In this document: piece after piece, positions 3,826-53,660 of the stretch
Numbering within the stretch: position 1 is the first letter of the stretch
Layout of the letters: the number at the start of each line of letters is the position of its first letter
Source of the DNA: Acidobacteriota bacterium
GTDB lineage: Bacteria; Acidobacteriota; UBA6911; RPQK01; JAJDTT01
Assembly (NCBI GenBank): GCA_965263035.1
Contig: OZ253580.1
Location: forward strand, 5,984,001-6,048,000
DNA: 64,000 nucleotides
Reading direction: 5' to 3'
Notes under the pieces: generated by a model
Databases searched by the model: none
Seen by the model: the letters and a program-made list of their open reading frames with translations, nothing else
Told to the model about the DNA's origin: nothing
Made by a program: the position numbers and the translations under genes

Positions 3826-3889
3826 TCCCCCGCCTTCCACCGGTTGTCGGGCTTGGAAAAGAGGATAATCGCAAAAGAGAGGAACCCCA

Positions 3890-35925: not shown

Positions 35926-36907
35926 TCAGACGGAGATCCGCTCGACGATGTTGCGGGTGACGCGTCGCCGGCACCGGTCGTAGATCTGCGTGGTGCGGGG
36001 ATGGGAGTGCCCGGCCAGGTACCGGACGTCCTCAAACGGCACGTTCTGGCTCAGCAGATCCGTGACCGCCAGGACCCGGAAGGAGTGGGGCGAGAGGATC
36101 TCCGGCAGCCCGGCCGCCTGGAGCCGGCGCTTGAGCATCCGCCTGACGGCGTGAGGCGAGAAGGGCCGATCGGTAAGGGTGCCGTGCCGGCTCTCTCCGG
36201 CCCGAAACATCACCGACCCCTTGGGCGCGGCGCCGAGCCCGGCCCCCTCGATGTAGGCCGTGAGCCATCGGTCCAGGTCATGGCGCACGGGGATCTCCCG
36301 GGCTTTGCCGCCCTTCTCGGCAAACAGGAGCGAGCGCAGGCTCCTAGTCCCGCAGATCCTGGATCCGGAGCCGGGTGATGGCCCCGACGTGGGCGCCAGT
36401 GTAGATCAGGGTCCCCAAGACCGCCCGGTCCCGAAGTCCGAATACATGGCTGGTATCGATCGAGGCGAGGAGTTGCCGGGCTTGGCGAACCGTCATCTCG
36501 GGGATCTTTCCGTCTCCGAACGGATTCCGGACGCCGCGAACCGACTGAAAGGGATTGAGTACCGCCGCGTGGCGGCGGACGAGGGCGTCGAAGAAGTGGC
36601 GCAATCCGGCCAGAGCCTGGTTCTTGTTGGCGGCCTCGCCGGGGAGCTGCTCGATGAAGCGGCCGGCGGTTCCTGGCGTGACTTGCCGCAGCTCGAGTCC
36701 CTGGGCCTCGCACCAGGAGAGGAACTCGCTGACGGCCCGGGCGTAGGAGCGCCGGGTGTGGGGGCTGGAGATCTGCGCCGAGAAGAACTCATCGGCCGCA
36801 AAGCAGGCGGCTTTCCCGGCGCGCACGAGGATGGCCGGGAAGGCCGTTTGGAGGTGGTTTTTCGCTGGCGTGGCCGACGTTTTCAGGGCGATCTTCTGAT
36901 GACTCAT
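35926..36907 (-). pseudogene. Tyrosine recombinase (phage-integrase family), inactivated
   Basis: SAM-like N-domain (TRRSYARAV), GLRDRA..., EKGGK, HSFR, LAGH, TTQIY. Catalytic R is replaced (YTGAH instead of YTGAR) and there is a stop/frameshift at about 36344. Confidence 0.9.
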
Positions 36908-36911
36908 TCTC

Positions 36912-36939
36912 GGGTACGATAATATGCTTTGTCGTACCC
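36912..36939. other. Putative recombinase crossover site, type A (copy 1)
   Basis: GGGTACGATAA-TATGCT-TTGTCGTACCC: 11-bp arms (1 mismatch), 6-bp spacer, 4 nt from the recombinase start codon. Confidence 0.75.
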
Positions 36940-37011
36940 TGCACCACGCCCCTGACTCCCCATTCTCTGCGACGGCCGTGCGCTATTCCATCCCCTTCTG
37001 TCCCCACCCGG

Positions 37012-37039
37012 TGAGCCCATTCCGACGAGAAAATCACCT
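37012..37039 (+). promoter_or_regulatory. TGAGCC-N17-CACCT promoter-like motif
   Basis: TGAGCC cattccgacgagaaaat CACCT. Confidence 0.65.
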
Positions 37040-37139
37040 TTCATTGTGTCGTGAAAGTGAAATCATTTCGGGAAACCAATCGGGGGAACCGGGGACCCGC
37101 TCCGTGGGTCCCCGGTTCCCCAAGACAGGAGGAAGACCT

Positions 37140-37688
37140 ATGAAGCGATGGAGTCAAAATGAAGGAACCCGTCGGCATCTGTGGAACCGGGCCCTCATCC
37201 TGCCGCTGTGCGCTTGCCTGGTGCTCGCCGGCAGTGTGACGCATCCCGTCTGGTCCGCCGGAGCCTCCGAGGACGAGCGGCTGCACGAACTTCTCAGAGG
37301 CAAGAAGATCCATGCGGCCTTCAAGAACTACGGCTTCGTGTCGGGCCAGGTCAAGGAAGTCCAAGAGAACGCCCTGAGAGTCGATGTCACTAAGAGTTTC
37401 AATCTCAGTTTGATTTCGACTGGGGTTCAGGACATCCCCATCGAGCGGATTTCCACCGTGCGCTGGACGGCAGGGTCCAAGAACAGAAAGATTTTCTTCA
37501 CGGTGGGCTTTGCAATCGGAATTGTTGGGGGGCTTTGGCTTACGGGAAGTGGAGCTAATGTACTCGCATTTATGGGAACTACAGCGGGGGGAGGACTACT
37601 TGGGTACTTTGTGGGTTCGAGAATGGACCATAGGAGCATCGACCTTGGGACCCACCGACCGCCGACGGGGCGCCCGCCCAAGAAATAA
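37140..37688 (+). CDS. Secreted protein: beta-rich domain plus Gly-rich hydrophobic C-terminal hairpin (family member 1)
   Basis: RBS AGGAGG; signal peptide; ends GGGLLGYFVGSRMD; paralogous to 40660 and 44648. Confidence 0.72.
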   Translation: MKRWSQNEGTRRHLWNRALILPLCACLVLAGSVTHPVWSAGASEDERLHELLRGKKIHAAFKNYGFVSGQVKEVQENALRVDVTKSFNLSLISTGVQDIPIERISTVRWTAGSKNRKIFFTVGFAIGIVGGLWLTGSGANVLAFMGTTAGGGLLGYFVGSRMDHRSIDLGTHRPPTGRPPKK

Positions 37689-37869
37689 GAGTGCGAGCCA
37701 TAAGCGGCCCCCTGAGCTGGCCGACAACTGGATCACGAGCTGGATGGCCGTCCCCACTGATTCGGCGAGCCAAGTGAAATCGCCCTACCGTACATGAACG
37801 GAAACCACAGCGATGACCTGTCGAGAACAATTCAGAGGGGAACCCGAGTGACCACTGGGCGCGGGCCGG

Positions 37870-38105
37870 CCGCCGGTGCAGATCGTTTAGGCCGGCAACT
37901 CAACAAGTCGTTTCTTGTCCTGAGTTTTCTCCTGCAGTATTCTTGGTGTCCTGAAGGCGAGCCCGCCAAGTGTAGCAGCACCCGGCAGGCTCTAAGCCAA
38001 CTCGACCTATGCCGGAGGACGAGCCAGCCTGGTAGATATTCTATTCCACCATCCTCCCTGGTTTCATTCCGGCATAGGTCCTCTCATCGGAGTCAGGATC
38101 TTCCG
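37870..38105 (+). ncRNA. Candidate structured leader element upstream of LRR gene (copy 2)
   Basis: Homologous to 4885-5115. Perfect stem GACCTATGCCGGA (38004-38016) / TCCGGCATAGGTC (38068-38080). Confidence 0.5.
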
Positions 38106-38193
38106 ACTGCGGAGAATGAAGGCCTCCAACCCGCGCCAGGTCCACTCCTAATTGGGCACACATGGATCCCGACCCATTCACGAGGGAGAAACC

Positions 38194-40569
38194 ATGACCA
38201 CCTTTGAACACACCGAAGACAACATCGTGTTTCGGTGCCGCTCCGGCTCGTGGGGAGGCCGATTTTTCCGAACGAGCATATTGCAAGACAAACTCGTCTC
38301 TTTCGTTTTGTCCTCGGCAGTGGGGTGCCTCACGGTCGTCTTGCTGCTGGCGGCGGCGCCCCCTTTGCAAGCCTGCGACGATGGTTGGACGGTGCCGGAT
38401 CCCGAGAACAATTCCGGTCTGGTGGAGGACTGTAGAGTCCTTCTGGCTATACGCGATGACTTGGCCGGGACCGGCTTCTTGAACTGGGAGTTTGGTTTGC
38501 CCATCGACCGCTGGGGCGGTATCCGCGTCTCGGCATCTCCCAGCCGCGTGCGGCAGTTGGTCCTGTTTGGAGACGACCTGTCAGGGTCGATCCCGTCGGG
38601 ACTGGGTCGGCTGTCCCAACTGCAGACGTTAAGGCTCCTTAGCCGGCAACTGATGGGGCCGATCCCACCGGAATTGGGACAATTGTCGCATCTGGAGGAG
38701 TTGAGCCTCTCTGGCGACCGGCTGGGAACGATTCCTGCCGAGTTGGGGCAGCTCTCCCGCCTTCGTCGGTTGGGACTCGTCGGCAATCAGCTGACGGGTC
38801 CGATCCCCGCCGAGTTGGGTCAACTGTCCAATCTCCGTCGGTTGCATCTTCAGAACAACGAATTGACAGGCCCAATTCCGGCCGAACTGGGCCAACTATC
38901 TCAGTTGGAGGCGATGTCGCTTGACCACAACAAACTGACGGGTCCGATCCCCGTCGAGTTGGGACAGCTGTCCCAGTTGGGCGAAGGGTTGCATCTCCAG
39001 AACAATCAACTGACGGGGCAGATTCCGGGCGAACTGGGTCGACTGTCTCAACTTTGGGGGGAATTGGATCTACGGAACAACCAGCTAGCGGGTCCGATTC
39101 CCGCCGAGTTGGGTCAACTGTCCCAGCTGACACGCTTGTACCTTCAAGACAACCAGCTGACCGGATCGATCCCGCCGGAACTGGGACAAATGTCCCGGTT
39201 GCTGGAGTTGTATCTCCACAACAACAAACTGACGGGTCCGATTCCCGCCGAACTGGGAAAACTCTCCCGGCTGTGGCGCCTGCACCTGCAGAACAACGAG
39301 TTGACAGGATCGGTTCCGGCCGAACTAGGGCAACTCTCCGAGTTGCAGGAGTTCGGTTTCCGGGGCAATCGGCTGACGGGATCGGTTCCCACCGAGTTGA
39401 GTCATTTGCCCGATGTGTACGTATTGAACTTGCACGCGCGCCGGACCACCCCAGAACAGATTAAGGTCACCTGGGACGATCCGGGTGACCCCAGCACCGA
39501 TTACGAGTACCGGCTCGTGCTGCGGGATGAGAACCTGAACTATACGGTGACAGACTGGACCGAAATTGAAGATCCAGAGGCGACACTGGGTGGGGGCGAA
39601 GGGGTCACCATCGAATGGACTTTGACCAACCTGCCAGCCGAACTCGATGTCGTCTCGGTCCGTTTGAGGGCGAAGAACGAGAACGGTCCAAGTCCGCCAG
39701 CATCGGCTCCAATAGAACCCTTCCAGGTTTCCGAGGATGTGGATCTACCCTACTGCCGTTCGCTGTGGCCGGGACGGGCGCGTTGCACCACCACTACAGT
39801 CCTGCCTCACGTCTTCATGGGCCCTCTCGGCGAGGATGAGGCCCGAGCCGAAATCCTCATTACCAACCGCAGCGGGTTTGTAGCTTGCGACCTGGCGCTG
39901 CTCTTTCACCAGGGAACTTCCGAAGCTCCGCAGGTATTGTTCGACAACGAGCCGCTCGAGGGGAACCTGTTCGAGACCAACCTTTCCAGGGGAGCTGCAC
40001 GGATCCTGACCTTGACGTCGGATTCGGAAGAGCTGGTGGTCGGGGCGGTCTCGGTCTTCGTCCGCGTTCCCTGCTCGATCACCTCGTTCCAGGTTCGGGG
40101 ACGTTACCTCGTAGAAGATCGGATGAGCGGAGATATCCAAGAGCTCTTTTCCGTTTCCGGCCAGTCTCCGCGGGAGTGGCTCGGAAATGGGGATTGTCAA
40201 GTCTTGACCGGAGCCTTCGGCCCGGGACGCAATCTCGGTTTTGCCTCGGTGACGACCGAACCGAATCAGGGTGCTCCGGCGGGGACCCAACTCCATTTCC
40301 AGGCCTTCGATCTGGAGGGGAACCCCATGGACGACCCACCCAGCATGGAGATCACCGGCGCACAGACCGCCTCCTTTCCCTGGAGCTTCCAGGAACCCAC
40401 CATCCTCAAGATGTGCCTGGAGGTTCCGGAGCCGGACAGTCAATTCCAGCTCTCGACCATCGCCATCGGCGTCGTCCAGAAGGGGAACAACGTGCAATGG
40501 AGTGATGAACCCGCCGTCGAAGTCACGCCAGCAGGTCAACCCTCGGGCTGGCCGGACACCCGGCCCTGA
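38194..40569 (+). CDS. Secreted leucine-rich repeat protein with FN3-like and C-terminal beta domain
   Basis: LRRNT (GLVEDCRVLLAIRD...W.G); about 12 LxLxxNxLTGPIPAELGQL repeats; VTW...YEYR...LRAKNENG FN3-like segment. Confidence 0.9.
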   Translation: MTTFEHTEDNIVFRCRSGSWGGRFFRTSILQDKLVSFVLSSAVGCLTVVLLLAAAPPLQACDDGWTVPDPENNSGLVEDCRVLLAIRDDLAGTGFLNWEFGLPIDRWGGIRVSASPSRVRQLVLFGDDLSGSIPSGLGRLSQLQTLRLLSRQLMGPIPPELGQLSHLEELSLSGDRLGTIPAELGQLSRLRRLGLVGNQLTGPIPAELGQLSNLRRLHLQNNELTGPIPAELGQLSQLEAMSLDHNKLTGPIPVELGQLSQLGEGLHLQNNQLTGQIPGELGRLSQLWGELDLRNNQLAGPIPAELGQLSQLTRLYLQDNQLTGSIPPELGQMSRLLELYLHNNKLTGPIPAELGKLSRLWRLHLQNNELTGSVPAELGQLSELQEFGFRGNRLTGSVPTELSHLPDVYVLNLHARRTTPEQIKVTWDDPGDPSTDYEYRLVLRDENLNYTVTDWTEIEDPEATLGGGEGVTIEWTLTNLPAELDVVSVRLRAKNENGPSPPASAPIEPFQVSEDVDLPYCRSLWPGRARCTTTTVLPHVFMGPLGEDEARAEILITNRSGFVACDLALLFHQGTSEAPQVLFDNEPLEGNLFETNLSRGAARILTLTSDSEELVVGAVSVFVRVPCSITSFQVRGRYLVEDRMSGDIQELFSVSGQSPREWLGNGDCQVLTGAFGPGRNLGFASVTTEPNQGAPAGTQLHFQAFDLEGNPMDDPPSMEITGAQTASFPWSFQEPTILKMCLEVPEPDSQFQLSTIAIGVVQKGNNVQWSDEPAVEVTPAGQPSGWPDTRP

Positions 40570-40587
40570 GAGCCACCCCCGACCTGG

Positions 40588-40615
40588 TGAGCCCATTCCA
40601 GCGGAAAAATCACAT
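40588..40615 (+). promoter_or_regulatory. TGAGCC-N17-CACAT promoter-like motif
   Basis: TGAGCC cattccagcggaaaaat CACAT. Confidence 0.65.
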
Positions 40616-40659
40616 TTACTGCTGCTAGGACGATCCAAACCATGAAGGGGGTACACGCC

Positions 40660-41115
40660 ATGAGAGGTCTGACGATTGAGAGTCAAGGATGGCTCAGGAT
40701 AACCACAGCGATGGGAGTGATCTCCTTGCTGCTAGCGCCAGTCACGACCGACCTATTCTGTGCTCCCCGGACAGAGAAGTTCGGGTCGGCGATTTATCGA
40801 AAAATGGTGTGGAACGAACTTCCCGCCTTTCTCGAAGGAGAAAAGAAGGTCACCATCGTGCTCGCCGAGGGGGGCGCAGTCCGCGGCGACGTGGCCGGGG
40901 TGCCGGACAATGGCATCCATCTCAGTCGCGTTTCAATGACTACCAACGGGTGGCTCTACCCGACGGGTTCGGACGCTTTGATCCCCAGATCCTCGGTCAA
41001 AGAAATACGTGTGGAGAAACGCGGTGGGCTTAATCGCGTCGGGGGTGCTGTTCTGGGCTACCGGATGGGCAAACGCGCGGATGTCGAGACCACCATCATC
41101 ATGATCGTGGACTGA
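40660..41115 (+). CDS. Secreted protein family member 2 (shortened Gly-rich region)
   Basis: Signal peptide; KVTIVLAEGGAVRG...IPRSSVKEIRV; ends GGAVLGYRMGKRAD. Confidence 0.7.
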   Translation: MRGLTIESQGWLRITTAMGVISLLLAPVTTDLFCAPRTEKFGSAIYRKMVWNELPAFLEGEKKVTIVLAEGGAVRGDVAGVPDNGIHLSRVSMTTNGWLYPTGSDALIPRSSVKEIRVEKRGGLNRVGGAVLGYRMGKRADVETTIIMIVD

Positions 41116-41199
41116 TTCCCCAAGGTATCGAGAATAGCTTGGAAGACGACCGCTCGCCGGAACCCCTCAGCAAGCTGAAAATGGCGATCCTCTGGGTAA

Positions 41200-41225
41200 C
41201 GTCTGTTAACTGAAATTAACGGACG
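41200..41225. other. Putative recombinase crossover site, type B (copy 1)
   Basis: CGTCTGTTAA-CTGAAA-TTAACGGACG: 10-bp arms (1 mismatch), same spacer as the 45677 site. Confidence 0.6.
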
Positions 41226-41464
41226 ATCTCTGGAAAAAGGGAGGATCCCGGGGCGTGCAAATCAGTCGCAAATCTCCCGGAAACACGGTTTAAGAGAATA
41301 CCACCAAGACCCTTCATGAGGGCTCGGGGTACGAAAATTGCACTTTATTGGACTCTGATACCATCCCACAGAGTCGCCGCCGCAGTTGAGATGATCCAGC
41401 ACGAGGCGGATTCTGTCCTGGCCCATGACTCCGGGAAGGGATAAAGTGGGGAGGGAGAGAACGC

Positions 41465-41749
41465 ATGTCCAACGAACAACTCCTGACCATCGTCGCTTCC
41501 ATTGCGAGCGCCACCATCGCTCTCGGTGGTCTCATCCTGGCCCAATCACGCACGATCCGTTCTGAGCTTCGAGAAGCGGCTCGGGAACGCGCTGCTCTCC
41601 GGGACCGCATGGATACCCAGATCGGAGATCTCCGGGACCGCATGGATACTCAGATCGGAGATCTCCGGGACCGCATGGGGCGGATCGAGGGAACGCTCGA
41701 CGTGCTCCGGGAGTTCTTCGTGGGGTCCGGCCGCGGCACCGCCGCTTGA
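41465..41749 (+). CDS. Small membrane-anchored coiled-coil protein with 11-aa tandem repeat
   Basis: N-terminal TM helix; 33-bp repeat x2.5 (41597-41678, LRDRMDTQIGD); RBS GGAGAG. Confidence 0.75.
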   Translation: MSNEQLLTIVASIASATIALGGLILAQSRTIRSELREAARERAALRDRMDTQIGDLRDRMDTQIGDLRDRMGRIEGTLDVLREFFVGSGRGTAA

Positions 41750-41780
41750 CCCGTCCTTGCACCTTGCACAACACGCGTGT

Positions 41781-42301
41781 TCATGTCGACCACGCGTTAT
41801 AGACCTTCTGCAATTCTTCGATCCAACACTTATCCTCATCGATCGTATCGCGTCCCCGCGACCGGGCTAGGAAATTGATCTACTGCGAAAGCGGTAGAAT
41901 CGGTCCATATTCCCCCGATTTCTCGGCGAATAGAACAACTATGCACCTCCAAATCGAGAAAATCTGGCCTCGATTCCCCACTTTCTCGCTACGATCATTT
42001 CTACCGCGCAGACTCCTAGCGTGAAGAAACCGGGTCCGGGTATCCGGTCACCCTTGTGCACGACCACGGCGGTGAGCATCCCTCGTCCTGCTTCATCCTC
42101 TTCAGTCGAGATATCCCCGAGCATCCGCGCCAAGCGGGGGTCATGGGGTTCGAGAATGCAACTCGTAATGCTGTGCACGAGGTCTGAATAAGCAATCGTG
42201 TCCCGCTGGCGGGACACGGCAATCATGGCTTTGCGGGCTTCTTCCTTGGCGGCGTTCCAGGCGATTTGAGTAAATCCGTGATTGAAGGTTTCACGCTTCA
42301 T
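41781..42301 (-). pseudogene. Small hypothetical protein translationally coupled to the MTase, interrupted by a 145-bp insertion
   Basis: Removing 41871-42019 restores ...PGPGFFTLARSRGRDTIDEDKCWIEELQKVYNAWST-stop (123 aa). Confidence 0.75.
41871..42015. mobile_element. 145-bp MITE-like insertion with CTAG duplication
   Basis: CTAG at 41867-41870 and 42016-42019; subterminal inverted GCGGTAGAA / TTCTACCGC; removal restores the frame. Confidence 0.7.
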
Positions 42302-43926
42302 GTGTTTCTCGCCCGTGTTCCACGCTCCAGACGGTAGAGGTTAAGTTCCAGCAACTCGCAGCGGACGTCGTCGTCAGTGATGTCAGCACGCCATCCATAG
42401 GCATCCGCAACCGCAGAGTCGAGCGTTGCGTGGGCGTCGGCGAGCCACTGTGGCCGGGCGTTGTAGAGATTCGTCAGCGTGCGCTTCTTGAGTTCCTTCG
42501 CCGCTGTTTCGTTGCGAGGAACGGGACGCTTCGGATAACCGGGAACCGGCTCGTCCACCCATTCGACCCATTCCGATGGGTTTAGCCAGCGGTCGCGACG
42601 CTCGACTAGTTTCTGCGCCGCTTCCGCAATGGTGACGGCGTGCGGATCGTCCGCATAGTCGGCGGAGGGAATGTCCGGAGATAGCCCCTCCGGGAAGGGG
42701 AAGGGCTCGAAAGTCGTGGTCGGGGTGTAGCGCGGATCATTGCCCTTGCCGACCGACGTCCCAAGCCGAAGAGACCAGATCTCGTGGAACCGGCTATGCA
42801 GGATGCCGAAGGTTGTGTCATCGTCGCGCGCGATGATGATCAATTGGTGATCGGGACAGATACGTGTGTCAAGCCACGAGAACACGCGATGCTTCGCGAC
42901 GGTTGGCGTAACGATGCAGCGCGAGCGCCCGGCGAGCACGGCCCACATGCCCTGTCTCGGCTCCACGTGGCGCCACCAGTACTCACGATACGTTTTCCGC
43001 CGATTCCGCTGGCGCATCGGGTAGACACGTTCCTGCACTCGTCGGAACGGCTCTTCGTATAGCGCCGCATCACCTTCCGGCATCGTCCACCCGAAGTCGA
43101 CGATCCACTTCCCCGCCGGCCGCTGGGTCACGTCCCTCCCGTTCACCCACGGCTTCAGGACATCGGCGTTCGTGCGGCCGTTCGGGTTCGCTGGCAGACG
43201 GAGCCACTCACGAGCCTGATCACCCGCAATGTCGAAGGGACCACCCTTCGTGTCGCCCATGAACGCGACGTTAGCATTCTCCGCAAGACGGCCGGCACTC
43301 GTCAGATCGACGCCAGCACCACCGCGGCGCGCTGTCAGGTCCGCATAGACCTCGTCGACAGCCTGGCCATCGAGCCAAATTCCAGCCAGGGATTCGTCGC
43401 CGGCACGCGAGAAGCAAACCGGTGACACCCGCACGGCCGCTCCGTCGACGACCCATGGCTCGTCGCTCCACGCCTCGAAGATCGACCGATTGTGCGTCGC
43501 GGTCGTTAGCATACGGCGGTTCGCTCCACCCCGGATGGAGTTGGTTGCAACAAGCCCGACCCGCTTCGCCTTGCCGGATGCAATCTGCTGGCCCGCCTTC
43601 TCGAACCAGTAGCAGACCAAGTCGGCTTCCGCCGGTACACGGCCAGCGTAGGTCGCGAACATCCGCGACACGTAGCCCTCGCCCAAGTGCGTAATCAGGA
43701 GCTTGCCGCCCAGAAACGGCGGGTTGCCGATGATGACATCGGCATCAGGCCAGTCTGGCTCGGTTCCGTCCGGCGCAAGGATCGCGTCTCGGCACTCGAT
43801 CGTGTCAAGCGGCTTCAGGATCGGGTCACGCGCCTCCGCGAAACCATTGCGCCGCATCCACTGGATCTCGCCGATCCAGACCGACACCCGCGCAAGCTCC
43901 GCCGCGTAGGGGTTGATTTCAAGCCC
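42298..43926 (-). pseudogene. Type IIL/IIG (MmeI-like) DNA methyltransferase-TRD, 5' half deleted
   Basis: GLEINPYAAELA, VIIGNPPFLG (motif IV), ADLVCYWFEKA, TNSIRGG, RYTPTTTFEPFPFP, RTLTNLYN. Upstream of GLEIN the sequence switches to the duplicated 29131 segment. Confidence 0.88.
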
Positions 43927-44205
43927 CTGACCTCCAAGGGGAGCAACCTGGTGCTCAACTTCGCCACCTCGGCGGCGGGGAGCATCCACATCGAGATCCA
44001 GGACGAAGCGGGACGGCCGCTTCCCGGCTTCGCACTGGAGGAATCGCCGCTGGTCTGGGGAGACGACATCGAGCACACCGTCCGCTGGGAGCGGTCCCAC
44101 GCCGGGGCGACGTCGAAAGAGCCGTTGAAGCGGATCGCGGGCAAACCGGTGCGCTTGCGTCTGGTGATGAAGGACGCCGACCTGTTTTCGCTACGGTTTC
44201 AGTGA
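43921..44205 (+). repeat. Copy 2 of the 27901 gene 3' end
   Basis: KPLTSKGSNLVLNFATS...DADLFSLRFQ-stop; about 92% identical to 29131-29415. Confidence 0.92.
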
Positions 44206-44478
44206 CCGGGTTGCGCATGGCCTGCCGGTAGATGCGCGGCCAAATGCGCTGGACTTGCATCTGTATTGGATCGCAGCAATTCTGAAATTCCTAGGCTGGG
44301 TGAAGATGCGGGTATTACCCGCCCCGTATTCTAGATTGAGAGCTGGGCGAATTAGGAACTTACAGCACTCTATACAGGTGGTTGTGCTGCGCATATGAAG
44401 GGGCTCGAACGGTCGCTTCCGGAACTGCTTGCTCCGGCGAGTCTTATTGTTCGAGGTTGCGATCCTCGGTGCCTCTAC

Positions 44479-44508
44479 AGAATACGATAATATACTTTAT
44501 CGTATTCT
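44479..44508. other. Putative recombinase crossover site, type A (copy 2)
   Basis: AGAATACGATAA-TATACT-TTATCGTATTCT: perfect 12-bp arms, 6-bp spacer. Confidence 0.75.
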
Positions 44509-44576
44509 AACCCCCGCCCCTGATCTCTGATTTCTGCGCCGGCCGGGACACTCGAGCTCCTCTTTTTTCAATCCGG

Positions 44577-44604
44577 TGAGCCCATCCCGGAGAGAAAATC
44601 ACAT
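44577..44604 (+). promoter_or_regulatory. TGAGCC-N17-CACAT promoter-like motif
   Basis: TGAGCC catcccggagagaaaat CACAT. Confidence 0.65.
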
Positions 44605-44647
44605 TTACCCCTGACGGGATCATCCCAACCCGGAGGAGGTCGATGCC

Positions 44648-45241
44648 ATGAGACGCCGGACCAACAAGAGCGGAGGTGGGATCAAGAACATCACCGCGAC
44701 GGGACTCGTCCCCCTGCTGCTTCTCGCGAGTATGCCAGGCTGCGGCGGGTGGTCCGTGGATCCCATGCCCACTTGGCCCAAGGTCCAAGGTGTGAAGCCG
44801 GGTACCAAGACTGAGGTTCAACTGTATAAAGATAAAGCGCCCCAAGGAAGGCAGAAGATCAAGGGGCGGTTCCTATCGGCTACGGACGACTCTGTCACGC
44901 TGGAACTCACCGAGCGCATCCACACGGATCTGAGAACCCGCACGTTGCAGAAGTCGGATGTGCGCAAGGTGCTGACCCATCGCCCGTTCTTGAAGCGATG
45001 GCCCGGATGGGCCACCATTTTGGTTTCCTCTGGTGTGGGTGCACTGGTTCCCATCAGCAATGATAAGACGCGAGCAGAAGGTTTTCTCACCAACTTCATT
45101 CTGTCCATCCCACTTTCGATCCCGTTCTTCATTGGATCACGCATGGGACGAATCTACGAGGTTCCACCCCAGCACAGAGATTCAGAGTGGTGGGATGGCT
45201 CGCCGGCGATCAAGGCGAAGAAGCTGACCCCTTCCAAATGA
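44648..45241 (+). CDS. Probable lipoprotein, secreted protein family member 3
   Basis: RBS GGAGGAGG; LLLLASMPGC; KIKGRFLSATDDSVTL...VRKV; hydrophobic hairpin ending FFIGSRMG. Confidence 0.72.
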   Translation: MRRRTNKSGGGIKNITATGLVPLLLLASMPGCGGWSVDPMPTWPKVQGVKPGTKTEVQLYKDKAPQGRQKIKGRFLSATDDSVTLELTERIHTDLRTRTLQKSDVRKVLTHRPFLKRWPGWATILVSSGVGALVPISNDKTRAEGFLTNFILSIPLSIPFFIGSRMGRIYEVPPQHRDSEWWDGSPAIKAKKLTPSK

Positions 45242-45676
45242 TTCGGAACTCCAGACACCGTGACCATTCCCGGTCTCGGTGAGCCGCCGCCGAGAACGGG
45301 CCGCAACGGCACGGTCCAAGCGTCGAAGCGGAGCGTCTCTTCCGGGGTCTTCACAGCGGCCTTCCCGCAGGGATCAATGAGAAGTGAGCGCCCCCCCCCG
45401 CATGGCAAGAGTGTGTTACACGGACGGGCCTGGCGTGAAGTGCGAGGCACGAAATAAGGGGGGTCGCTCACTTCTCCTTCCTTATTCCCCGTCCCTCCCC
45501 AAGTCCTCTGGGAGGAAGGGGGGAACTCGAAGGGGCTCAACAAGATGGGGGAAAGGGACCTCGGTACACTAGGGAGCCCCAAAATGGTACCCACCCCCCA
45601 TTGTGCGTGTACCAAACTGAGAGTGCTCCGCCTATAAGACCCCGAAGACGGTACACAGGCGGGGATCTTCTGGACA

Positions 45677-45704
45677 ACATCCGTTAACTGAAATTAACGG
45701 ATGT
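45677..45704. other. Putative recombinase crossover site, type B (copy 2)
   Basis: ACATCCGTTAA-CTGAAA-TTAACGGATGT: perfect 11-bp arms, 6-bp spacer. Confidence 0.68.
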
Positions 45705-45774
45705 AGACTGCTCACACTTGATTCAGACTCTGCGCCGTCCGTGCGCTTTCCCGTCCGCTTCTGTCCCAATCCGG

Positions 45775-45802
45775 TGAGCTCCTGCCGGTGGAAAAATCAC
45801 AT
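45775..45802 (+). promoter_or_regulatory. TGAGCT-N17-CACAT promoter-like motif (no intact downstream gene)
   Basis: TGAGCT cctgccggtggaaaaat CACAT, followed by the third copy of the 27901 3' end. Confidence 0.6.
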
Positions 45803-45829
45803 CTGTTTGTACCGTGTCGGACGAAGAGT

Positions 45830-45922
45830 TCGGAGGAACCCTTGAAGCGAATCGCGGGCAAACCGGTGCGGCTGCGTTTAGTGATGAAGGACGCCGATCT
45901 CTTTTCGTTGCGGTTCCGGTGA
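45830..45922 (+). repeat. Copy 3 of the 27901 gene 3' end
   Basis: Encodes SEEPLKRIAGKPVRLRLVMKDADLFSLRFR-stop. Confidence 0.88.
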
Positions 45923-46339: not shown

Positions 46340-49300
46340 CTACGAGACTTCCATACCTTCTTCGCCCTCCCGGATGCTCAAGTTGCCGTAGCGATGGTAA
46401 TCGACACTGATGCTTTGCTCCCTCAAATACCAGAGCAACTCCACCCGGCCCTGGATCAGGACGGGGGCTCGCGCCAAGTAAACCCCGGACGCGGCCGCCG
46501 CCCGGAAAACGATCTCCGGCACCCGCTCCGGCGCCGAAAAGCGGACGCGGTCGGTCTCGGATTCGCGGACCCGGCTCGCCAGCTCGTCGTCGGTTTCCTC
46601 GAGAAATTCGACACCCTCGTTCCACGATGCGGTCAGCTCCTGCAGCCAGTCGGTGGCCGGAGACCACCAGCCCCGGGGGCAACTCAACGTGGCTCGGCAG
46701 CCAACGGCCTTGGCCGCACAGACGCGCGCAAAGATCTCGAACAGCGAATCAAGGGGATCCAGGCGGATGTGGAGCCGGCGGACGGGCAGATAGCGCCGCA
46801 GGTTGTCCTGGCCCACCAGACGGAAGTGGTCATGGGTACGGCCGAATTCCTCTTGACTGTTGGCGCAGTAGCTCTCCAGGGCTACCGCGACCCGAAGCAG
46901 GTCGTCCCCGTCCGCGGCGACTCCGGGCGGACTCGGCTGTTGCAGGCGCCAACGGAGGTCGGCGAGATCGGGATCGGCGACTTCGAGGGAGCCGGCGCCA
47001 ACTTCACCGTCTCGGAAATCCATAAGCTGGGCCACGTAGTTGGGTCCTCCCGCCTTGATTCCGGGGCCGAAGGCGGACTTACCCATGCCACCAAAGGGTT
47101 GGCGGAGCACGATGGCCCCGGTGGTCCCCCGATTGACGTAGAGGTTGCCCGCCTCGACGCGGTCGCACCAGTAAGATTGTTCGCGATCGTCCAGGCTCTC
47201 GAGGCCGGAGGTCAGGCCATACCCGGTCTGACGGATGAGGTCCAGGGCCTGGTCCAGGTTCTTCACCTCCATCACCCCCAGCACGGGACCGAAGAGCTCG
47301 GTCAGGTGGGTGAAACTCCCCGGCCGGACATCCCACTTGATCCCTGGTGAGTAGAGACATGGATTGTCTTCCAGCCGTCGGGGCATCACAGCCCAGGACT
47401 CGCCCGGCTCCAGTTCCTTGAGGCCGGTTTCCAGGACACCCGAGGGAGCGCGAATCAGGGGACCCATACTGGTGTGGAGGTCCCAGGCCGAGCCCACCTC
47501 CAGACTCCGCACCGCGTCGCAGAGCGTCTCTTTGAACCTCGAATCCCGGTAGACCTCCTCCTCCACAAGGAGCAGGGACATAGCCGAACACTTCTGTCCG
47601 CTGTGACTGAAGGCGGAGTGAACCACGTGGCTGATGGCCAACTCCCGGTCTCCAAGAGCGGTCAAGGTCGTAGCGTTCTTCCCCCCCGTCTCAGCCAGCA
47701 GATTCATATCCGGCTTGGCCCGCAGCATCCACCGGGCGGTCTCGGTACCGCCGGTGAGGATGACGGCGTCCACCTCCGGGTGGGAGACCAGGCAGGATCC
47801 GGCAATCTCGTCGGAGCAGGAGACCATCTGCAGAGTCCGTCGGGAAACCCCGGCCCTCCAGAAGCAACGGCAAAGCTCGTGAGCCACCAGCACCGTGTCG
47901 GGGGCGGGCTTGAGGATGACCGTGTTCCCGGCCGCCAGTGCGGCGGCGATTCCGCCTCCCGGTATGGCGATGGGAAAGTTCCAGGGAGCAACGACGACCA
48001 CGACACCCTTGGGCTTGACCTGCAGACCTGGAAGGTCGTGGAAGTCGCGGGCCGCCAAGTCGTAGAAAACGACGAAATCCACCACCTCGCTGACCTCCGG
48101 GTCCGACTCGGCCAGGGTCTTGCCGCCGTCCGCCAGGGCGGCGCCCATGAGGTCCCCCCGGCCACGGCGCAATTCCCGCGCCACCGACTCCAGCACTTGG
48201 GAGCGCTCTTCCACCGTCCTCCTGCGCCAGCCGTCGATATCGTTTCGAGCGCAGGTCACTGCCCGCTCGATGTCCTCCCGGTTGGCCTGCCGATATCGGC
48301 CGACGACCAGGCCCGGCCGGGAGGGATCCCGGCAGTCTCGCAGCTCCCGATCCTGAAAGATCTCCTCCCCGTCCACCACCAGGGGAACTTCCACCTTGTT
48401 GTCGTCGTGTCGAGGTTTCCAGCGTTCGATGATCGCCTGGGCCCACTCGCGGTTGGCAGGAAGTGAGAAATCGGTATCCGGTTCGTTGACAAATCGGCTC
48501 CACGAACTCGGGGGTGGCGACGCACCAGTCTCGGCCAGGCGGTTCTGAACGCGTCGAGGCATCTCCGAAACTTCTTCGCGGCGACGGGAAGATTCGAGGA
48601 ACCCCGCTTCCAGTCGTTTCCACTCCGGGCTGCCGGGGACCAGCTTGAAGGCGTACCTGAGAAAATTGTCGGTTCCCGTGTTCTCGTCCAGACGGCGAAA
48701 GAGGTATCCGACGGCGTTGATGAAGTTCTCTTTCCTGGTCGCCGGCGCATAGAGAAGGAGGTCTTGCACCAGCTCGGACAGGGCACGGCGCTGGGCATTG
48801 GCCATCCCTTCCAGCATCTCGAACTGCACCCGGTCCAGGACGCCGGCCTCCGCAGCCAACAGCAGGGCGTACGAGACGTCGAAGAGGTTGTGTGAAGCCA
48901 CCCCCAGCCGCACGGCGGCAATATTCTCCGGAGCCAGAGCTTCGTGCAGCATGCGCTTGTAGTTGGCGTCGGTCTCAAGCTTTGACTCGTACGGCGCCTG
49001 CTCCCAGCCCCGCAGCGACGCCTCCACACGTTCCATCTCCAGGTTGGCGCCCTTCACCAGCCGGATCGTTACCGGCGCTCCTCCGCTCTGCATCCGTTCC
49101 CTGGCCCAGGCGTTGATTCTCTTCTGGGCCAGGTAGGAGTCGGGGAGGTAGGCTTGAAGAGCGATCCCCCCGCCGGCCTGTCGCAAGCCCTTGCGGTCGA
49201 GGGTCCGCAGAAAGACCTCCGTAGTCACCGCCAGGTCGCGATACTCCTCCATGTCGAGGTACACGAACTTGGACACCACGCTGCCATCCCTGCGTCGAAA

Positions 49301-50005
49301 GCGCCCTCTGGCCGCAGCCCGATACAGCAGCTCCAGCCGGTCGCAAAGCACGGAGACGGCGTGCTCGAAGGCCAGAGACGAGATCTGCGAGTAGATGGTG
49401 GAGATCTTGACCGAGATGACCTCAATCTCCGGGATCTGCAGCGCACTCAGGTACAACTCCAAACGCCGCTGGGCCTCGGCTTCTCCCAGGAGGGCCTCTC
49501 CCAGGAAGTTGACGTTCATCCGCACCCCGCCGGACCGGCGAGCCTCCAGGTGCCGGACTAGCAGGTCCTCCTCGGCGGGGAGGATGACGTTTGCGGTTTC
49601 TTCCCGCATCCTCTCCCGGACCAGCGGCGCCGCCACCTCCGGGAGGTAGCTGCCGAAGGAGTGAAACCCCTTGAGCAGCGTTCGGTCCAGACCGCTGAAG
49701 AAGCGAGGGATTCCCTGGATGTCCAGGATGTGCAGGATCTGGTCGACGGCGCGGTGCGGGTTGCTGGATCGGAAGGCCTGGTCGGTGAGCTGGGTGACGG
49801 TCGCTTTGTCGTGCGGACTCTGCACCATCCGCTCCAGTTCGGCCTGCTGCTTTTCTTCTTCGGGGGTTTGAAGCGTCGCCGCGTTTTCCTGAAGACACCG
49901 TGCCAGGAAGACGGCTTTCTGCGCCCGCTCGGAGTAGGGTGACCCGCAGTCCGGCCCAAACCATCCGAGAAGCTCGTGCAAGGACTTCTTCACGTGGGGA
50001 TCCAT
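46340..50005 (-). CDS. putA: Bifunctional proline dehydrogenase / P5C dehydrogenase
   Basis: NFLGE, LDMEEY, LQAYL, RLVKGAN, ASHN, EMLEGM, RRLDEN; ALDH motifs PWNFP, ETGGKNA, GQKCSA, ELFGPVL, GYGLTSG, RQPFGG. Confidence 0.96.
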   Translation of the reverse strand: MDPHVKKSLHELLGWFGPDCGSPYSERAQKAVFLARCLQENAATLQTPEEEKQQAELERMVQSPHDKATVTQLTDQAFRSSNPHRAVDQILHILDIQGIPRFFSGLDRTLLKGFHSFGSYLPEVAAPLVRERMREETANVILPAEEDLLVRHLEARRSGGVRMNVNFLGEALLGEAEAQRRLELYLSALQIPEIEVISVKISTIYSQISSLAFEHAVSVLCDRLELLYRAAARGRFRRRDGSVVSKFVYLDMEEYRDLAVTTEVFLRTLDRKGLRQAGGGIALQAYLPDSYLAQKRINAWARERMQSGGAPVTIRLVKGANLEMERVEASLRGWEQAPYESKLETDANYKRMLHEALAPENIAAVRLGVASHNLFDVSYALLLAAEAGVLDRVQFEMLEGMANAQRRALSELVQDLLLYAPATRKENFINAVGYLFRRLDENTGTDNFLRYAFKLVPGSPEWKRLEAGFLESSRRREEVSEMPRRVQNRLAETGASPPPSSWSRFVNEPDTDFSLPANREWAQAIIERWKPRHDDNKVEVPLVVDGEEIFQDRELRDCRDPSRPGLVVGRYRQANREDIERAVTCARNDIDGWRRRTVEERSQVLESVARELRRGRGDLMGAALADGGKTLAESDPEVSEVVDFVVFYDLAARDFHDLPGLQVKPKGVVVVVAPWNFPIAIPGGGIAAALAAGNTVILKPAPDTVLVAHELCRCFWRAGVSRRTLQMVSCSDEIAGSCLVSHPEVDAVILTGGTETARWMLRAKPDMNLLAETGGKNATTLTALGDRELAISHVVHSAFSHSGQKCSAMSLLLVEEEVYRDSRFKETLCDAVRSLEVGSAWDLHTSMGPLIRAPSGVLETGLKELEPGESWAVMPRRLEDNPCLYSPGIKWDVRPGSFTHLTELFGPVLGVMEVKNLDQALDLIRQTGYGLTSGLESLDDREQSYWCDRVEAGNLYVNRGTTGAIVLRQPFGGMGKSAFGPGIKAGGPNYVAQLMDFRDGEVGAGSLEVADPDLADLRWRLQQPSPPGVAADGDDLLRVAVALESYCANSQEEFGRTHDHFRLVGQDNLRRYLPVRRLHIRLDPLDSLFEIFARVCAAKAVGCRATLSCPRGWWSPATDWLQELTASWNEGVEFLEETDDELASRVRESETDRVRFSAPERVPEIVFRAAAASGVYLARAPVLIQGRVELLWYLREQSISVDYHRYGNLSIREGEEGMEVS

Positions 50006-50406
50006 CGGAATATAAGATCTTGGACCAGGAGCCTCTTTGGTGGCGCCCCCTCCACAGGATCAGCGGCCCGCATCGTCAGTTTCTTTCGCATTCCCTTCTC
50101 TAACAACCCGCAGTCGGTTGGCTCGATTGCTCGAGGCGGTTCCTTCCAACCGTTTCTACCACCGGCCCGCATTTCTCATCGGGGCCTGCACTCTTGAGAA
50201 GAGTGTAGGGATGGCGCAGAGATTCTTTGTAAGCGCCTGCACGCGACCGCAAAGCGTAGCCGGGTCCCCGTTTGAGCGCGACCGCAAAGCGGAGCACCGG
50301 ACTGTCCCCTTCTCTTCCTAAAGCATTCTACTGGACCCTGCCCCTTCCCCCTGCCCCGTCTTCAGGCGCTGGCTACGCCTCTCCGTCCTTTCTTTTTTCG
50401 ACCCGG

Positions 50407-50434
50407 TGAGCCCCTTCCGGCGAAAAAATCACAT
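50407..50434 (+). promoter_or_regulatory. TGAGCC-N17-CACAT promoter-like motif
   Basis: TGAGCC ccttccggcgaaaaaat CACAT. A decayed site (TAA-AGCATT-CTACTGGACCC, about 50319-50338) lies at the usual distance upstream. Confidence 0.65.
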
Positions 50435-50460
50435 CTGTCTATGGTGAGCTTGGAGGAGCT

Positions 50461-51222
50461 ATGAGCAATATTTCCCACCCCCCCGGAAAGCGATTCAGGA
50501 AAATCTCGACAATCGGTCAGGCACCCTCGCCGCGGGCGACTCCCTGGCGTCCGTACGTTTTCGTCCTTGCGGCAACATTGCAACTCTGCAGTTGGGAGCC
50601 GCTTTGTGCGCAGCAGCGTGATCCTGCGGTAGAGATCTACGGACTAACAGGAGCTTACTATTTTGGGAATCGTTCGAACGTATTGAAAGGCGGGGAATGG
50701 AACCTACAGCTCGGGGTCGGCGGTCTGTTTCCTCTGGGATCGAAGTGGGCGGTGATGATCGATGGAGTCACGAGCCATCTGGAGGTCAATGAGGGGCCAC
50801 ATGGCCCATATGATGGCCATCCATTCTCAGAATTCTACAGAGTGAATCCCAGGATTCAGAACAATGATGTTACGACGCAAAGACTGATTTCCATTCTGCC
50901 ATCCATCGTCAGGCTGTGGAGAAGGGACCGACTCTCGATCTACATCGGCCTCGGTCTTGGGTTTGAGCAACAGCGTCAACTGATAAGGTATCAACCGGCT
51001 CTTCAACAGGAGAATCCTGATGGAAGCCGCATCCTTGTTCGCGCCGAAGAATTTAGGGAGTCGAGGGATGTCGTATCCGTCATGCCCCTAAACTTTCGCG
51101 CGGGTATCCTGATGAGTCTTGCTCCATGTGTTGTCGTGCGAGCGGGATACTCGCAAATTGTTGCTTACGTCGATACGGCTGCCTCCAGATCTCTCGAAGT
51201 GGGGATCGGATATCGTTTCTAG
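50461..51222 (+). CDS. Outer-membrane beta-barrel-like hypothetical protein
   Basis: RBS GGAGGAG; signal-like segment; C-terminal EVGIGYRF (BamA-type signal); lower GC than flanks. Confidence 0.72.
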   Translation: MSNISHPPGKRFRKISTIGQAPSPRATPWRPYVFVLAATLQLCSWEPLCAQQRDPAVEIYGLTGAYYFGNRSNVLKGGEWNLQLGVGGLFPLGSKWAVMIDGVTSHLEVNEGPHGPYDGHPFSEFYRVNPRIQNNDVTTQRLISILPSIVRLWRRDRLSIYIGLGLGFEQQRQLIRYQPALQQENPDGSRILVRAEEFRESRDVVSVMPLNFRAGILMSLAPCVVVRAGYSQIVAYVDTAASRSLEVGIGYRF

Positions 51223-51876: not shown

Positions 51877-52523
51877 TTTCTCCTCCTAATGTTGTAAGAA
51901 ATGGAATTTCTACCCTGAGACGCCAAGTGCAAACGGAGCAGGCCCCGATCCTGTGTAGTTGTACGATTCGATCGGGGATTCCTTGGGAGTCTTTCGCAGG
52001 GAAGAAACTAGCTTGGGCTCTCAACACCTGTCTTCGGTGTTACCTGTCGAACCCTCTGCTGAATTAACCGCCGCGAGCGTAGCCCTTTTTTCCATCGTTG
52101 TCAAAAGAACTTTGTCGTTAGTACGTGAAGTCTCCGGTCCATGAAGTGGGAGGTTTGAAGGTTTCCCGTTTTCGTGGACGGTTGGGTGGTACGGTTTCAA
52201 TCGGTGTTTTTTGTAATCCCCCTTCTATCGCTCAATGGCCATCGACGATGTCAGGGTTGTGGCCACTGACAGAGCGTTCTTTCTTCAGTGGGGGGGGACT
52301 GATGGAGACGTCGGCAGAAGGGCTCAGGTTGTGGGAAATCTCTGGTTTCCCACAACGGGATACCGTATTCAGACTCCTCCAAGAGGGATCAGGGCACGAC
52401 AGAAGCTCTTTATTGGACCCTGACCCGCGTCCCTGACCCCCAATTCCCCAGCCTTTTCCAGTGCTGGCTGGACAACGAAGCCGGGACGTTGCGGACCGTC
52501 CGGACGCTTCCAGCCCAAGTCGG

Positions 52524-53393: not shown

Positions 53394-53528
53394 CAGACAC
53401 CTCCGTCGAAGTATGGATTCCCTCCAGGAGCGGGGGCCCTCCCCTTCTCTCGCGAGCGCGGATCAGTCCCAAGGTCCCCGGAAACACGGGCCAGAAGAAG
53501 ATGACCAGACCCCTCCAGGAGGGAACAC

Positions 53529-53660
53529 CGTACGATAAGAGCACTTTATTTTACCCTGTTCCCTCCCTCTGACTCCCCCGTCTTCTACGGCGGCCGCGGT
53601 CCCGCGCCATCCCCTTCTTTCCCATTTCGGTGATTCCATTCGGGTCATAAACGAGTCCAG
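53529..53660 (+). other. Degenerate copy of the site-linker-promoter module
   Basis: CGTACGATAA-GAGCACT-TTATTTTACC, then CTGACTCCCC...CGGCCG...CCATCCCCTTCT.TCCC...CGGTGATTCCATT, aligning with 36912-37040. Confidence 0.6.

Follow-up and report, generated by a model that had tools for sequence, protein, structure and literature searches.

Introduction

The dif consensus consists of two arms of ~11 bp around a central region of 6-8 bp, with ATAA and TTAT on the inner sides of the arms. In XerS/difSL, Cre/loxP and TnpI/IRS of Tn4430, one recombinase uses a site with inverted arms and an asymmetric spacer that lies just upstream of its own gene; the attC sites of integrons stand at the 3′ end of promoterless open reading frames (ORFs), and in vpma-type loci the recombination site is found within the conserved 5′ regions of surface-lipoprotein genes. 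Here, a stretch of 64,000 nt (the window) was analysed, corresponding to positions 5984001-6048000 of a single-contig Acidobacteriota genome of 6.198 Mb and 62% G+C (G000), in which a tyrosine recombinase gene and two families of short palindromes, named T1 and T2, accompany genes for small, putatively secreted proteins. The case for T1 and T2 as functional recombination sites rests on breakpoints found by comparing loci and genomes.

In excerpts of the corresponding papers, Acinetobacter dif modules are presented as discrete gene modules bounded by 28-bp Xer-type duplex sites (PMC13141974, PMC6449649, PMC7399989), attC sites as long imperfect hairpins in which structure is conserved over sequence (PMC3053210, PMC3458562), and the Mycoplasma Xer1/vpma system as an Xer-like recombinase beside a surface-protein gene family (PMC2268961, PMC5634654). 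No description of the present system was found in the literature searched, in which supplements were not covered.

Results

Two families of dif-like palindromes

Whole-genome counts were obtained by profile searches of G000. T1 has the form TACGATAA-N6/7-TTATCGTA, followed by CTAAACCACGCCCCTGAC, with 27 matches, and T2 the form GTCCGTTAA-CTGAAA-TTAACGGAC, with 24 sites. Recurring with them are X, a conserved connector of ~100 nt that joins T2 to a T1 with a 7-nt spacer, a linker, which is the C- and T-rich stretch downstream of T1, and PROM, a promoter-like motif (cGGTGAGCCcaTTCCGGCGAAAAAATCACATyT) with 31 matches. In the window, the recombinase gene, the sites and the segments attached to them are the following.

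35926-36907, minus strand: Xer-like simple tyrosine recombinase pseudogene, with an Arg to His change and an in-frame TAG and frameshift near 36342-36346; the genome match has one TAG
36912-36939, plus strand: T1 palindrome, 11-6-11, spacer TATGCT, 4 nt from the recombinase start codon
36940-37009, plus strand: linker, with CTG.ACCACGCCCCTGACTCCCC, CTGCG.CGGCCG and a C/T tract, from the alignment of units
37010-37037, plus strand: PROM, GGTGAGCC-N-AAAATCAC, found by profile and pattern, with no sigma-70 consensus match
41199-41226, plus strand: T2 palindrome, spacer CTGAAA, 84 nt past the stop of a 157-aa ORF
41227-41325, plus strand: connector X, hairpin-rich and non-coding, between T2 and T1; copies 82-97% identical, outer flanks unrelated
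41326-41356, plus strand: decayed T1 with a 7-nt spacer of the TTGCACT type and a non-linker right flank, by profile match
44479-44508, plus strand: T1 palindrome, perfect 12-6-12, spacer TATACT, with no recombinase to its left here
45677-45704, plus strand: T2 palindrome, perfect 11-6-11, its left flank unlike that of the orthologous site in congeners G007 and G006
50318-50340, plus strand: right half of a T1-like site, where the G007 homology beside putA stops
52391-52448, plus strand: decayed T1 and start of a linker, both flanks kept in G007 and G006
53528-53557, plus strand: decayed T1 preceded by X-like sequence, by profile match

Both families have the layout of Xer/dif core sites, with arms, spacer and arms of 11-12/6-7/11-12 and inner ATAA..TTAT in T1, and of 11/6/11 with inner TTAA..TTAA in T2, so that the loxP/dif-type geometry ascribed to the palindromes in a first-pass annotation of the window is upheld. 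The T2 spacer is CTGAAA in 22 of 24 copies and reaches 1.93 bits per position, compared with 1.42 and 1.31 bits for the arms and 0.52 for the outer flanks.

The same annotation had described five copies of a single ~130-bp unit, at 36912, 44479, 45677, 53529 and ~50319, which align with 63% mean column identity. Their recurrence is far above chance: the dif-like pattern CGWTAANNNNNNTTAWCG, allowing one mismatch, has four window matches for 0.12 expected, with none of 100 shuffles reaching four, and the promoter-like pattern has five for 0.00 expected, a number that no shuffle reached. The unit is, however, a mosaic of T1, T2, X, linker and PROM, and the five are not of one site kind, since 36912, 44479 and 53529 hold T1, 45677 holds T2 and 50319 only a right half-site. 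The tail of the unit at 53529 is the 5′ leader of a truncated leucine-rich repeat (LRR) gene. A constant TAA-to-TGA distance of 86-93 nt had been claimed for all five units, and 92, 89 and 90 nt were found in the three that were read. The palindrome without a linker placed near 41200 is real and is a T2 followed by X and a decayed T1. As to the idea of promoter-carrying site-linker-promoter modules, PROM does recur, but 20 of its 31 copies have no palindrome within 200 nt; the other 11 have one upstream (seven T1, four T2), at 71-87 nt in the case of T1 and 67-81 nt in that of T2. With two site families that differ in their spacers, the action of a single recombinase on one site does not follow.

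Roughly 12 of 25 T1 and 9 of 24 T2 copies were found without X, which argues against a simple T2-X-T1 miniature inverted-repeat transposable element (MITE). PROM showed no match to the sigma-70 consensus and T1 and T2 gave no terminator-like call; Rfam gave no match in the window at gathering thresholds, nor in loci L002 and L009 at E values up to 0.1. A sigma-54 promoter was considered for PROM and rejected, as its GG and TT fit but the GC at -12 is CC or GG by eye and the sigma-54 consensus is not matched. A stem CCGG-TGAGCCCATT-CCGG was discarded too, its covariation by eye being partial and inconsistent, and so was a short reading frame within X, ATG...TAA with its end in the T1 arm, which is not kept between copies. 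A scan of metagenomes with the T2 pattern matched only an unrelated AT-rich contig, by chance.

At genome position 155499 there is a half-site of T2, in which the left arm and spacer are fused to unrelated DNA. This half-site and the T1 half-site at window position 50318 could be scars of recombination with secondary sites.

The recombinase gene of the window and its paralogues

Two ORFs on the minus strand, at 36344-36907 and 35926-36288, are the halves of one tyrosine recombinase gene and match the Pfam families Phage_int_SAM_1 (PF02899) and Phage_integrase (PF00589). Between its start codon (CAT at 36905-36907) and the palindrome GGGTACGATAATATGCTTTGTCGTACCC (36912-36939) stands TCTC; a recombinase gene pointing away from a 28-bp palindrome 4 nt from its start codon, as first reported for this locus, is thus present at 35926-36939. 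By alignment to intact paralogues, the frame is broken after ...DLRD and the protein reads YTGAHVGA in place of YTGARVGA, so the catalytic Arg is replaced by His. The local recombinase is dead on both counts, as had been proposed, and intact paralogues that might supply the enzyme in trans do exist elsewhere in G000, for example at 3683181-3684164 and 5708243-5709223. Four public runs were examined among the 20 runs, from nine studies, that contain the window stretch, all as short Logan contigs; in three of the four, contigs carry A>T at 36338 and +CC after 36342, where the recombinase frame breaks, and therefore the pseudogene state may differ between populations or may in part reflect a long-read assembly error.

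The intact paralogues have 325-327 aa and carry TGARVGA, EKGGK, HSFR, GHAHP and TTQVY, that is, the catalytic R, K, HxxR, H/W and Y. Their best NCBIfam models are XerD and XerC, at 111-128 bits for equivalog cut-offs of ~330-335; given these low scores and 24-27 sites per genome, they are not chromosomal XerC/XerD equivalogs acting at one terminus site, and two stronger PF00589 genes are present elsewhere in G000. Against the integron integrase model TIGR02249 they scored 56.9 and 64.8 bits (cut-off 265), the match being confined to the ~75 C-terminal residues. Among solved structures, XerD (1a0p) is the nearest. Their domain content is PF02899 plus PF00589 only, and because only core-binding and catalytic domains are present, the family belongs with the simple tyrosine recombinases as these are delimited in an excerpt of the classification of PMC8138268; by its domains, the enzyme is a simple Xer-related tyrosine recombinase.

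G000 holds 27 matches to PF00589 and 11 to the subfamily of the window recombinase, several of the latter being fragments. The gene copies share 76-91% DNA identity over a stretch running from the stop codon to 15-60 nt past the palindrome. As a whole the family has at least 2871 clusters at 90% identity and at least 576 relatives confirmed among the matches listed, in representative genomes.

Pairing of recombinase genes with palindromes within and beyond the genus

The recombinase copies at 2087354, 3683181, 5547290 and 5655989 of G000 and the one in the window all have T1 at 4-6 nt from the start codon, and the same layout is kept in the same-genus genomes G001, G003 and G007. Homologues from other families, at 39-42% identity, have a perfect dif-like palindrome in the equivalent position, for example ACGTACCATAA-CGTCCT-TTATGGTACGT. 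Directly upstream of the gene, 26 of 80 loci, from Acidobacteriota, Planctomycetota and other phyla, had a palindrome whose arms match at 9 or more of 11 positions; in those 26 the arms are lineage-specific yet symmetric. The pairing of a recombinase with an adjacent palindrome, first noticed in the window, is conserved from same-genus genomes through to other phyla, and by these comparisons it is old.

A second recombinase subfamily in G000 (5708243, 2913447) has CGGTAA-AGTACG-TTACCG at 9 nt from the start, and this type of site was also found at the head of an LRR unit at genome position 6157461. At 3142319 a hybrid site is present, with a left arm of the TACGATAA type and a right arm of the TTACCGTA type, the latter being the arm of the other recombinase subfamily.

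At locus L126 of congener G006 (C30), a 1.65-kb insertion sequence (IS) with terminal inverted repeats GTTCTCATCCGGAAA... lies on the reverse strand at ~3095-4745, between the recombinase start codon and T1. In a Vicinamibacterales metagenome-assembled genome (MAG), a 1.64-kb repeat (L070, 4345-5995, and L071, 180 kb apart on one contig) is made up of a 590-nt stretch followed by the palindrome and the recombinase gene. It stops within ~8 nt of the stop codon, and its left end starts at another small palindrome, GCCCGA-CCGACA-TCGGGC. From its make-up, this repeat looks like a minimal mobile element with the recombinase as its sole gene.

Homology breaks at the palindromes

When the flanks of the T2 sites of G000 were compared in pairs (n=276), 13 pairs shared the right flank only, one the left flank only and one both. 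At T1 the left flank alone was shared in eight pairs out of 190, the right alone in one and both in none; this test used 20 of the 27 sites, five being without an anchor by the rule applied and two partial matches being left out. Left and right flanks assort independently at T1 and T2. Between loci with outer flanks at ~20-30%, X keeps 82-97% identity. The arm variants travel with their own flank: at site 6171075 the left flank and arm are those of 6029694, and the right arm and flank those of 3690876, which therefore places the exchange inside the shared central 18 nt, CCGTTAACTGAAATTAAC.

Comparison with congeners gave breaks at the same places. At the orthologous locus formed by G000 6146644 and G007 L121, identity is ~96% through a recombinase remnant and the whole of T1, and falls to family level directly after the right arm of T1, beyond which there is an LRR unit in G000 and a small-protein unit in G007. 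The same collapse of identity after T1 was seen between L002 and L115. The T2 beside putA has a left flank in G000 that differs from the one in G007 and G006, each flank type adjoining another T2, and on the other side of putA the G007 homology stops at the T1 half-site 50318. A recombinase gene precedes the cassette of the unit at 44479 in G001 and G007, whereas none does in the window. From 17 distinct sites in loci of relatives, 10 had both flanks matched in G000, and only two of these 10 were collinear; the two are one orthologous site in G006 and G007, and some of the left-flank matches are recombinase paralogues. The question raised by the first-pass annotation, of whether strain comparisons would place breakpoints at the palindromes, is thus answered: homology breaks fall there, within G000 and between congeners.

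Several candidate joints were rejected as recombination products. Those at 44200>44483, 44096>45859 and 54127>45239 are explained by paralogous loci (6163750, 6171057) or have short sides, the same holds for the pieces with inserted letters at 41253>53677 and 45397>45652, and no clean T1xT1 or T2xT2 joint was among them. One RNA contig covers 50405-51218, taking in the PROM motif and the gene through to its end. Because it begins at a 30-nt stretch that is identical at another locus, its start probably marks a graph break instead of the beginning of a transcript; carry-over of DNA is also possible. The contig is no guide to where transcription starts.

Arrays, cargo and distribution

Sites and motifs are gathered in islands at 3.683-3.693 Mb, 5.709-5.712 Mb, the window and 6.146-6.194 Mb, within each of which all sites are on one strand and follow a divergently transcribed recombinase gene; over the whole of G000 the strands are 21+/6- for T1, 18+/6- for T2 and 22+/9- for PROM. 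The island at 6.146-6.194 Mb repeats the order T1, leader, large ORF, T2, and in six cases T2 lies 37-46 nt past a stop codon. At three loci of G001 and G007 the order is recombinase, T1, PROM, lipoprotein gene, PROM, small secreted-protein gene and then T2 or T1. Outside the window, genes were called with a crude GC3-based ORF picker, so that details may be wrong, as for the 362-aa minus-strand ORF at 3684274. The cargo of the window, with its promoter-like motifs and leader, is listed below.

37104-37688, plus strand: 194-aa ORF with a signal-like N-terminus, a paralogue at genome 6167163 and no Pfam/NCBIfam family
38152-40569, plus strand: LRR-repeat protein of 805 aa (Pfam), duplicated together with the preceding ORF at genome 6167033-6170518
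40586-41115, plus strand: PROM (40586-40613) and a 157-aa ORF that belongs to the small secreted paralogue family, by pattern and N-terminus
44575-45241, plus strand: PROM (44575-44602) and a 197-aa lipoprotein-like ORF (44648-45241), by pattern, N-terminus and protein-atlas
45773-45800, plus strand: PROM after T2 and a different linker, by pattern match
50405-51222, plus strand: PROM (50405-50432) and a 253-aa ORF, a segment absent at the corresponding place in G007
53624-53850, plus strand: ~150-nt 5′ leader of the LRR family and start of the truncated LRR gene (ATG 53771), by leader alignment

The PROM at 40586 is a sixth promoter-like motif, additional to the units first described. By the ORF rule used, an ORF lies downstream of 26 of the 31 PROM copies; 13 of these 26 fall into one BLAST cluster of small proteins with signal-like N-termini, and other PROM copies precede LRR giants or lipoprotein-like ORFs. 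The putative label of secreted, membrane or outer-membrane (OM) protein was assigned from N-terminal sequences and protein-atlas neighbours. Six small cargo ORFs had no Pfam/NCBIfam family, the LRR proteins being the exception, and the protein-atlas neighbours are Acidobacteriota clusters without a name, the nearest named ones being Gly-zipper OMP-like at 0.94 and 0.82, which are leads only.

Nine congeners were counted for T2 and PROM and 32 further relatives outside the genus were searched. Both patterns were present in all nine genus genomes and in none of the 32 other relatives, with copies ranging from 1 to 23 (T2) and from 1 to 25 (PROM) among congeners. This spread fits an expanding mobile family better than a fixed regulon.

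Other features of the window

On the minus strand at 46340-50005 the window encodes the bifunctional PutA (proline dehydrogenase and aldehyde dehydrogenase), which has 83-94% identity in eight of eight congeners. It is the sole gene of the region that is conserved in all eight, and the DNA on either side of it varies and contains T1, T2 and PROM modules.

The LRR 5′ leader is found in the window (53624-53770) and at genome positions 6157541, 2088425, 6146728, 5173627 and 3685693, with the motif GGTGAxCCCATxGGGGTGAAAAACGAGG...TTCGGCCAGAAGGA...GAATACTGT and no Rfam match; this conserved leader of ~150 nt could be an unrecognised regulatory RNA.

Between T2 and the T1 at 44479, a MITE-like repeat of ~150 bp (41871-42023) has dozens of copies at 96-100% identity in G000, G001, G002, G003, G006 and G007, and in the public runs its bin reached a depth of 5,000-30,000, compared with ~50-150 in neighbouring bins. 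The 600-aa ORF at 42298-44100 (minus strand) has only weak partial matches to an MmeI-type methyltransferase, a target recognition domain (TRD) and a C-terminal region. Contig depth over 42468-44459 was ~5- to 40-fold above that of adjacent non-MITE bins in three DNA runs, and copies of a 300-bp piece at 43920-44219, 84-91% identical, are found at many points across the genus. The segment 42298-44100 probably belongs to a repeated element instead of being a working restriction-modification gene.

Discussion

The anatomy of the sites and units, the pairing of recombinase genes with sites, the independent assortment of flanks and the breakpoints at the sites between congeners are what the genomes show. 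From them, we lean towards the reading that T1 and T2 are Xer-type core sites at which recombinases acting in trans would exchange, excise or insert secreted-protein cassettes that have their own promoter-like motif. The sites would be of the Xer/dif type, with inverted arms of 11-12 bp and an asymmetric spacer of 6-7 bp, and the enzymes acting on both would be one lineage of simple tyrosine recombinases related to Xer. Each recombinase gene bears a cognate T1-type site a few bases from its start, where binding would provide the cis site and probably autoregulation, and in this Acidobacteriota genus the sites have multiplied. A unit runs from T1 through the linker, the promoter-like motif or 5′ leader and one or more ORFs for secreted or surface proteins to a 3′ end with T2, successive units being joined through T2, X and T1. 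Recombination between like sites would then excise, insert or exchange cassettes, T1 with T1 and T2 with T2, because their spacers differ, and the enzyme would come from intact paralogues elsewhere, because the recombinase of the window is dead. We infer that the recombinases bind and cut the sites, that the same enzymes also use T2, that PROM serves as a promoter and that exchange goes on to this day.

A wider version of this proposal, which we offer tentatively and hold to be possible rather than probable, is that T1 and T2 are orthogonal duplex sites of a cassette-exchange system, an analogue of the integron on duplex DNA that moves genes together with their promoters and, in one Acidobacteriota genus, diversifies secreted and surface proteins. 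Left to itself, a unit with T1 at one end and T2 at the other would be stable, because T1 and T2, with their different spacers, could not recombine, yet it could be swapped between arrays or excised with a connector, and dedicated recombinases would sit on their own site and regulate it.

A number of observations weigh against exchange at core sites. Outside the genus, each of 26 loci examined has a single cognate site in the 5 kb to the left and right of the recombinase gene, and because of this the arrays are not a trait of the recombinase family. In the Vicinamibacterales MAG the palindrome is internal to the 1.64-kb repeat, whose two copies, 98-99% identical, share 590 nt beyond it; the palindrome in that MAG may therefore, by this layout, be only an operator. 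Within the genus, the recombinase-linked T1 has a spacer of 6 nt (TATACT) and the X-linked T1 one of 7 nt (TTGCACT), and with spacers of different length classical two-strand exchange between them should fail. Among 25 PF00589 genes that were checked, not one starts beside a T2-like site, many recombinase copies of G000 are fragmentary, and when the gene copies were compared no second site was found beyond the stop codon, where their homology ends. Some breakpoints lie elsewhere: the mosaic of window 37011-40569 and 6167033-6170518 begins at PROM, the linker is far less alike between L115 and L114 than PROM and the gene are, and large indels with respect to G007, at window positions 33034 and 41871, are away from the palindromes. 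Finally, the excised or circular junctions to be looked for in reads, according to the first-pass annotation, were not seen; the four public runs, which offer short contigs only, contained no excision circle or deletion joint at the palindromes.

Several of these points would suit a regulatory module, in which the palindromes are operators of a dimeric DNA-binding protein, possibly the recombinase serving as repressor or activator only, that controls the promoter-like motif ~70-90 nt downstream and the recombinase's own promoter, the whole being spread with the genes by duplication and by homologous recombination between conserved segments of 30-45 nt. The narrow palindrome-to-PROM distances are in line with this, and so are an overlap, present in many lineages, between the palindrome and the recombinase gene's 5′ end, the single site per recombinase outside the genus, the palindrome inside the repeated unit of one MAG, the breaks at PROM and the nature of the downstream genes as paralogue families with similar N-termini, half of the ORFs being in one cluster. 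We nevertheless regard it as rather unlikely, for most PROM copies have no palindrome, many T1 and T2 have no PROM downstream and six T2 sites lie past a stop codon; a spacer better conserved than the arms, as in T2, is unusual in operators, X keeps its identity between flanks that are unlike, and a drop from 96% to family level exactly at the edge of an arm is hard to obtain by homologous recombination on ~28 bp. Nor do we favour a palindromic repeat, namely that T2-X-T1 or lone palindromes are non-autonomous elements of the repetitive extragenic palindromic (REP) or MITE kind, or DNA or RNA hairpins, spread by other machinery and acting as hot spots of illegitimate rearrangement, with T1 attracting insertions of recombinase genes. 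T2-X-T1 is indeed a discrete unit of ~155 bp with unrelated flanks on both sides and imperfect inverted repeats at its ends (GTCCGTTAA ... TTATCGTAC), X contains several short hairpins, with a few compensatory changes, outer arm positions co-vary, another MITE is abundant in the genome and an IS lies between a recombinase gene and T1 in G006. Such an element should not, however, leave T1 and T2 each alone in ~40-50% of copies; the whole palindrome is present in both products, as in conservative recombination, no Rfam family and no terminator-like call were obtained, and a palindrome kept at the recombinase start across phyla, with arms that change with the recombinase lineage, is not expected of an insertion hot spot, all of which makes this explanation unlikely.

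The pairing of recombinase and T1 might also be read as the int-att end of integrative islands that target T1 upstream of secreted-protein genes, with X-T1-linker as the empty attB, recombinase-T1-linker as the occupied site and X-T1 with a foreign right flank as the far junction. Left flanks of recombinase or X, combined in a mosaic with right flanks of linker or foreign DNA, fit this scheme, G000-specific DNA surrounds the window recombinase, and the interval 41356-44478, between two T1 sites, holds the remnant of an MmeI-like restriction-modification gene. This is very unlikely, all the same, as no T1-like site was found 3′ of a recombinase copy, the borders between G000 and G007 at 33034 and 41871 are away from the sites, and the arrays extend 5′ of the recombinase gene and not around it.

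If the sites are active, they would represent a second route, besides integrons, to chromosomal arrays of exchangeable genes, one that uses double-stranded Xer-type sites, two incompatible spacer classes and cassettes with their own expression signal. If exchange at core sites is true, it would show how secreted and surface proteins are varied in a phylum of soil and water that has been little studied, and would give a function to a recombinase family annotated merely as XerD or tyrosine-type recombinase. Small orthogonal pairs of palindromic sites and compact recombinases of 327 aa would be possible parts for genome engineering. If the palindromes are only operators, a lineage-specific regulatory module would be at hand.

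Comparison with known systems

With XerS/difSL, Cre/loxP and TnpI/IRS the present system shares a symmetric-arm site adjoining the recombinase gene, whereas those are single-copy resolution sites and here 24-27 copies per genome, in two spacer classes, bound variable genes. As in the excerpted accounts of Xer1/vpma, an Xer-like enzyme is paired with surface or secreted protein genes that share their 5′ regions. In contrast to the inversion between oppositely oriented genes described there, by which a single promoter is moved, the sites and genes of an island here all point the same way, and a promoter-like motif accompanies every unit; as T1, T2 and PROM share one strand within each island, they do not form an invertible-promoter or vpma-type switch.

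The first-pass annotation had called the system integron-like. What stands of this is the divergent recombinase followed by a co-oriented array, found from 35926-36939 of the window onward, in the L002 island and in the G001 and G007 loci, so that the recombinase gene is transcribed away from the primary site, small gene units are co-oriented and a site recurs after the stops of ORFs, as in integrons. The likeness ends with the integrase model (57-65 bits for a cut-off of 265) and the sites, since T1 and T2 are near-perfect palindromes of 28-30 bp with conserved sequence and spacer, unlike the long imperfect hairpins of attC, and because both comparisons fail the system, as read from its enzyme and sites, is not an integron. 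Its cassettes, moreover, differ from those of integrons in carrying a promoter-like motif.

The closest known kind is the Acinetobacter dif module. As far as excerpts of its literature describe it, both have 11-6-11 sites with ATAA/TTAT inner arms and modules shuffled between contexts. The dif modules, however, have sites with XerC/XerD-asymmetric arms, plasmid-borne, in alternating orientation and served by the host XerCD, whereas the arms here are symmetric, the sites are chromosomal and co-oriented, and there are two spacer classes. What sets the present system apart further is that it has dedicated recombinase genes beside T1, a cargo of secreted-protein genes with a promoter-like motif and an Acidobacteriota host.

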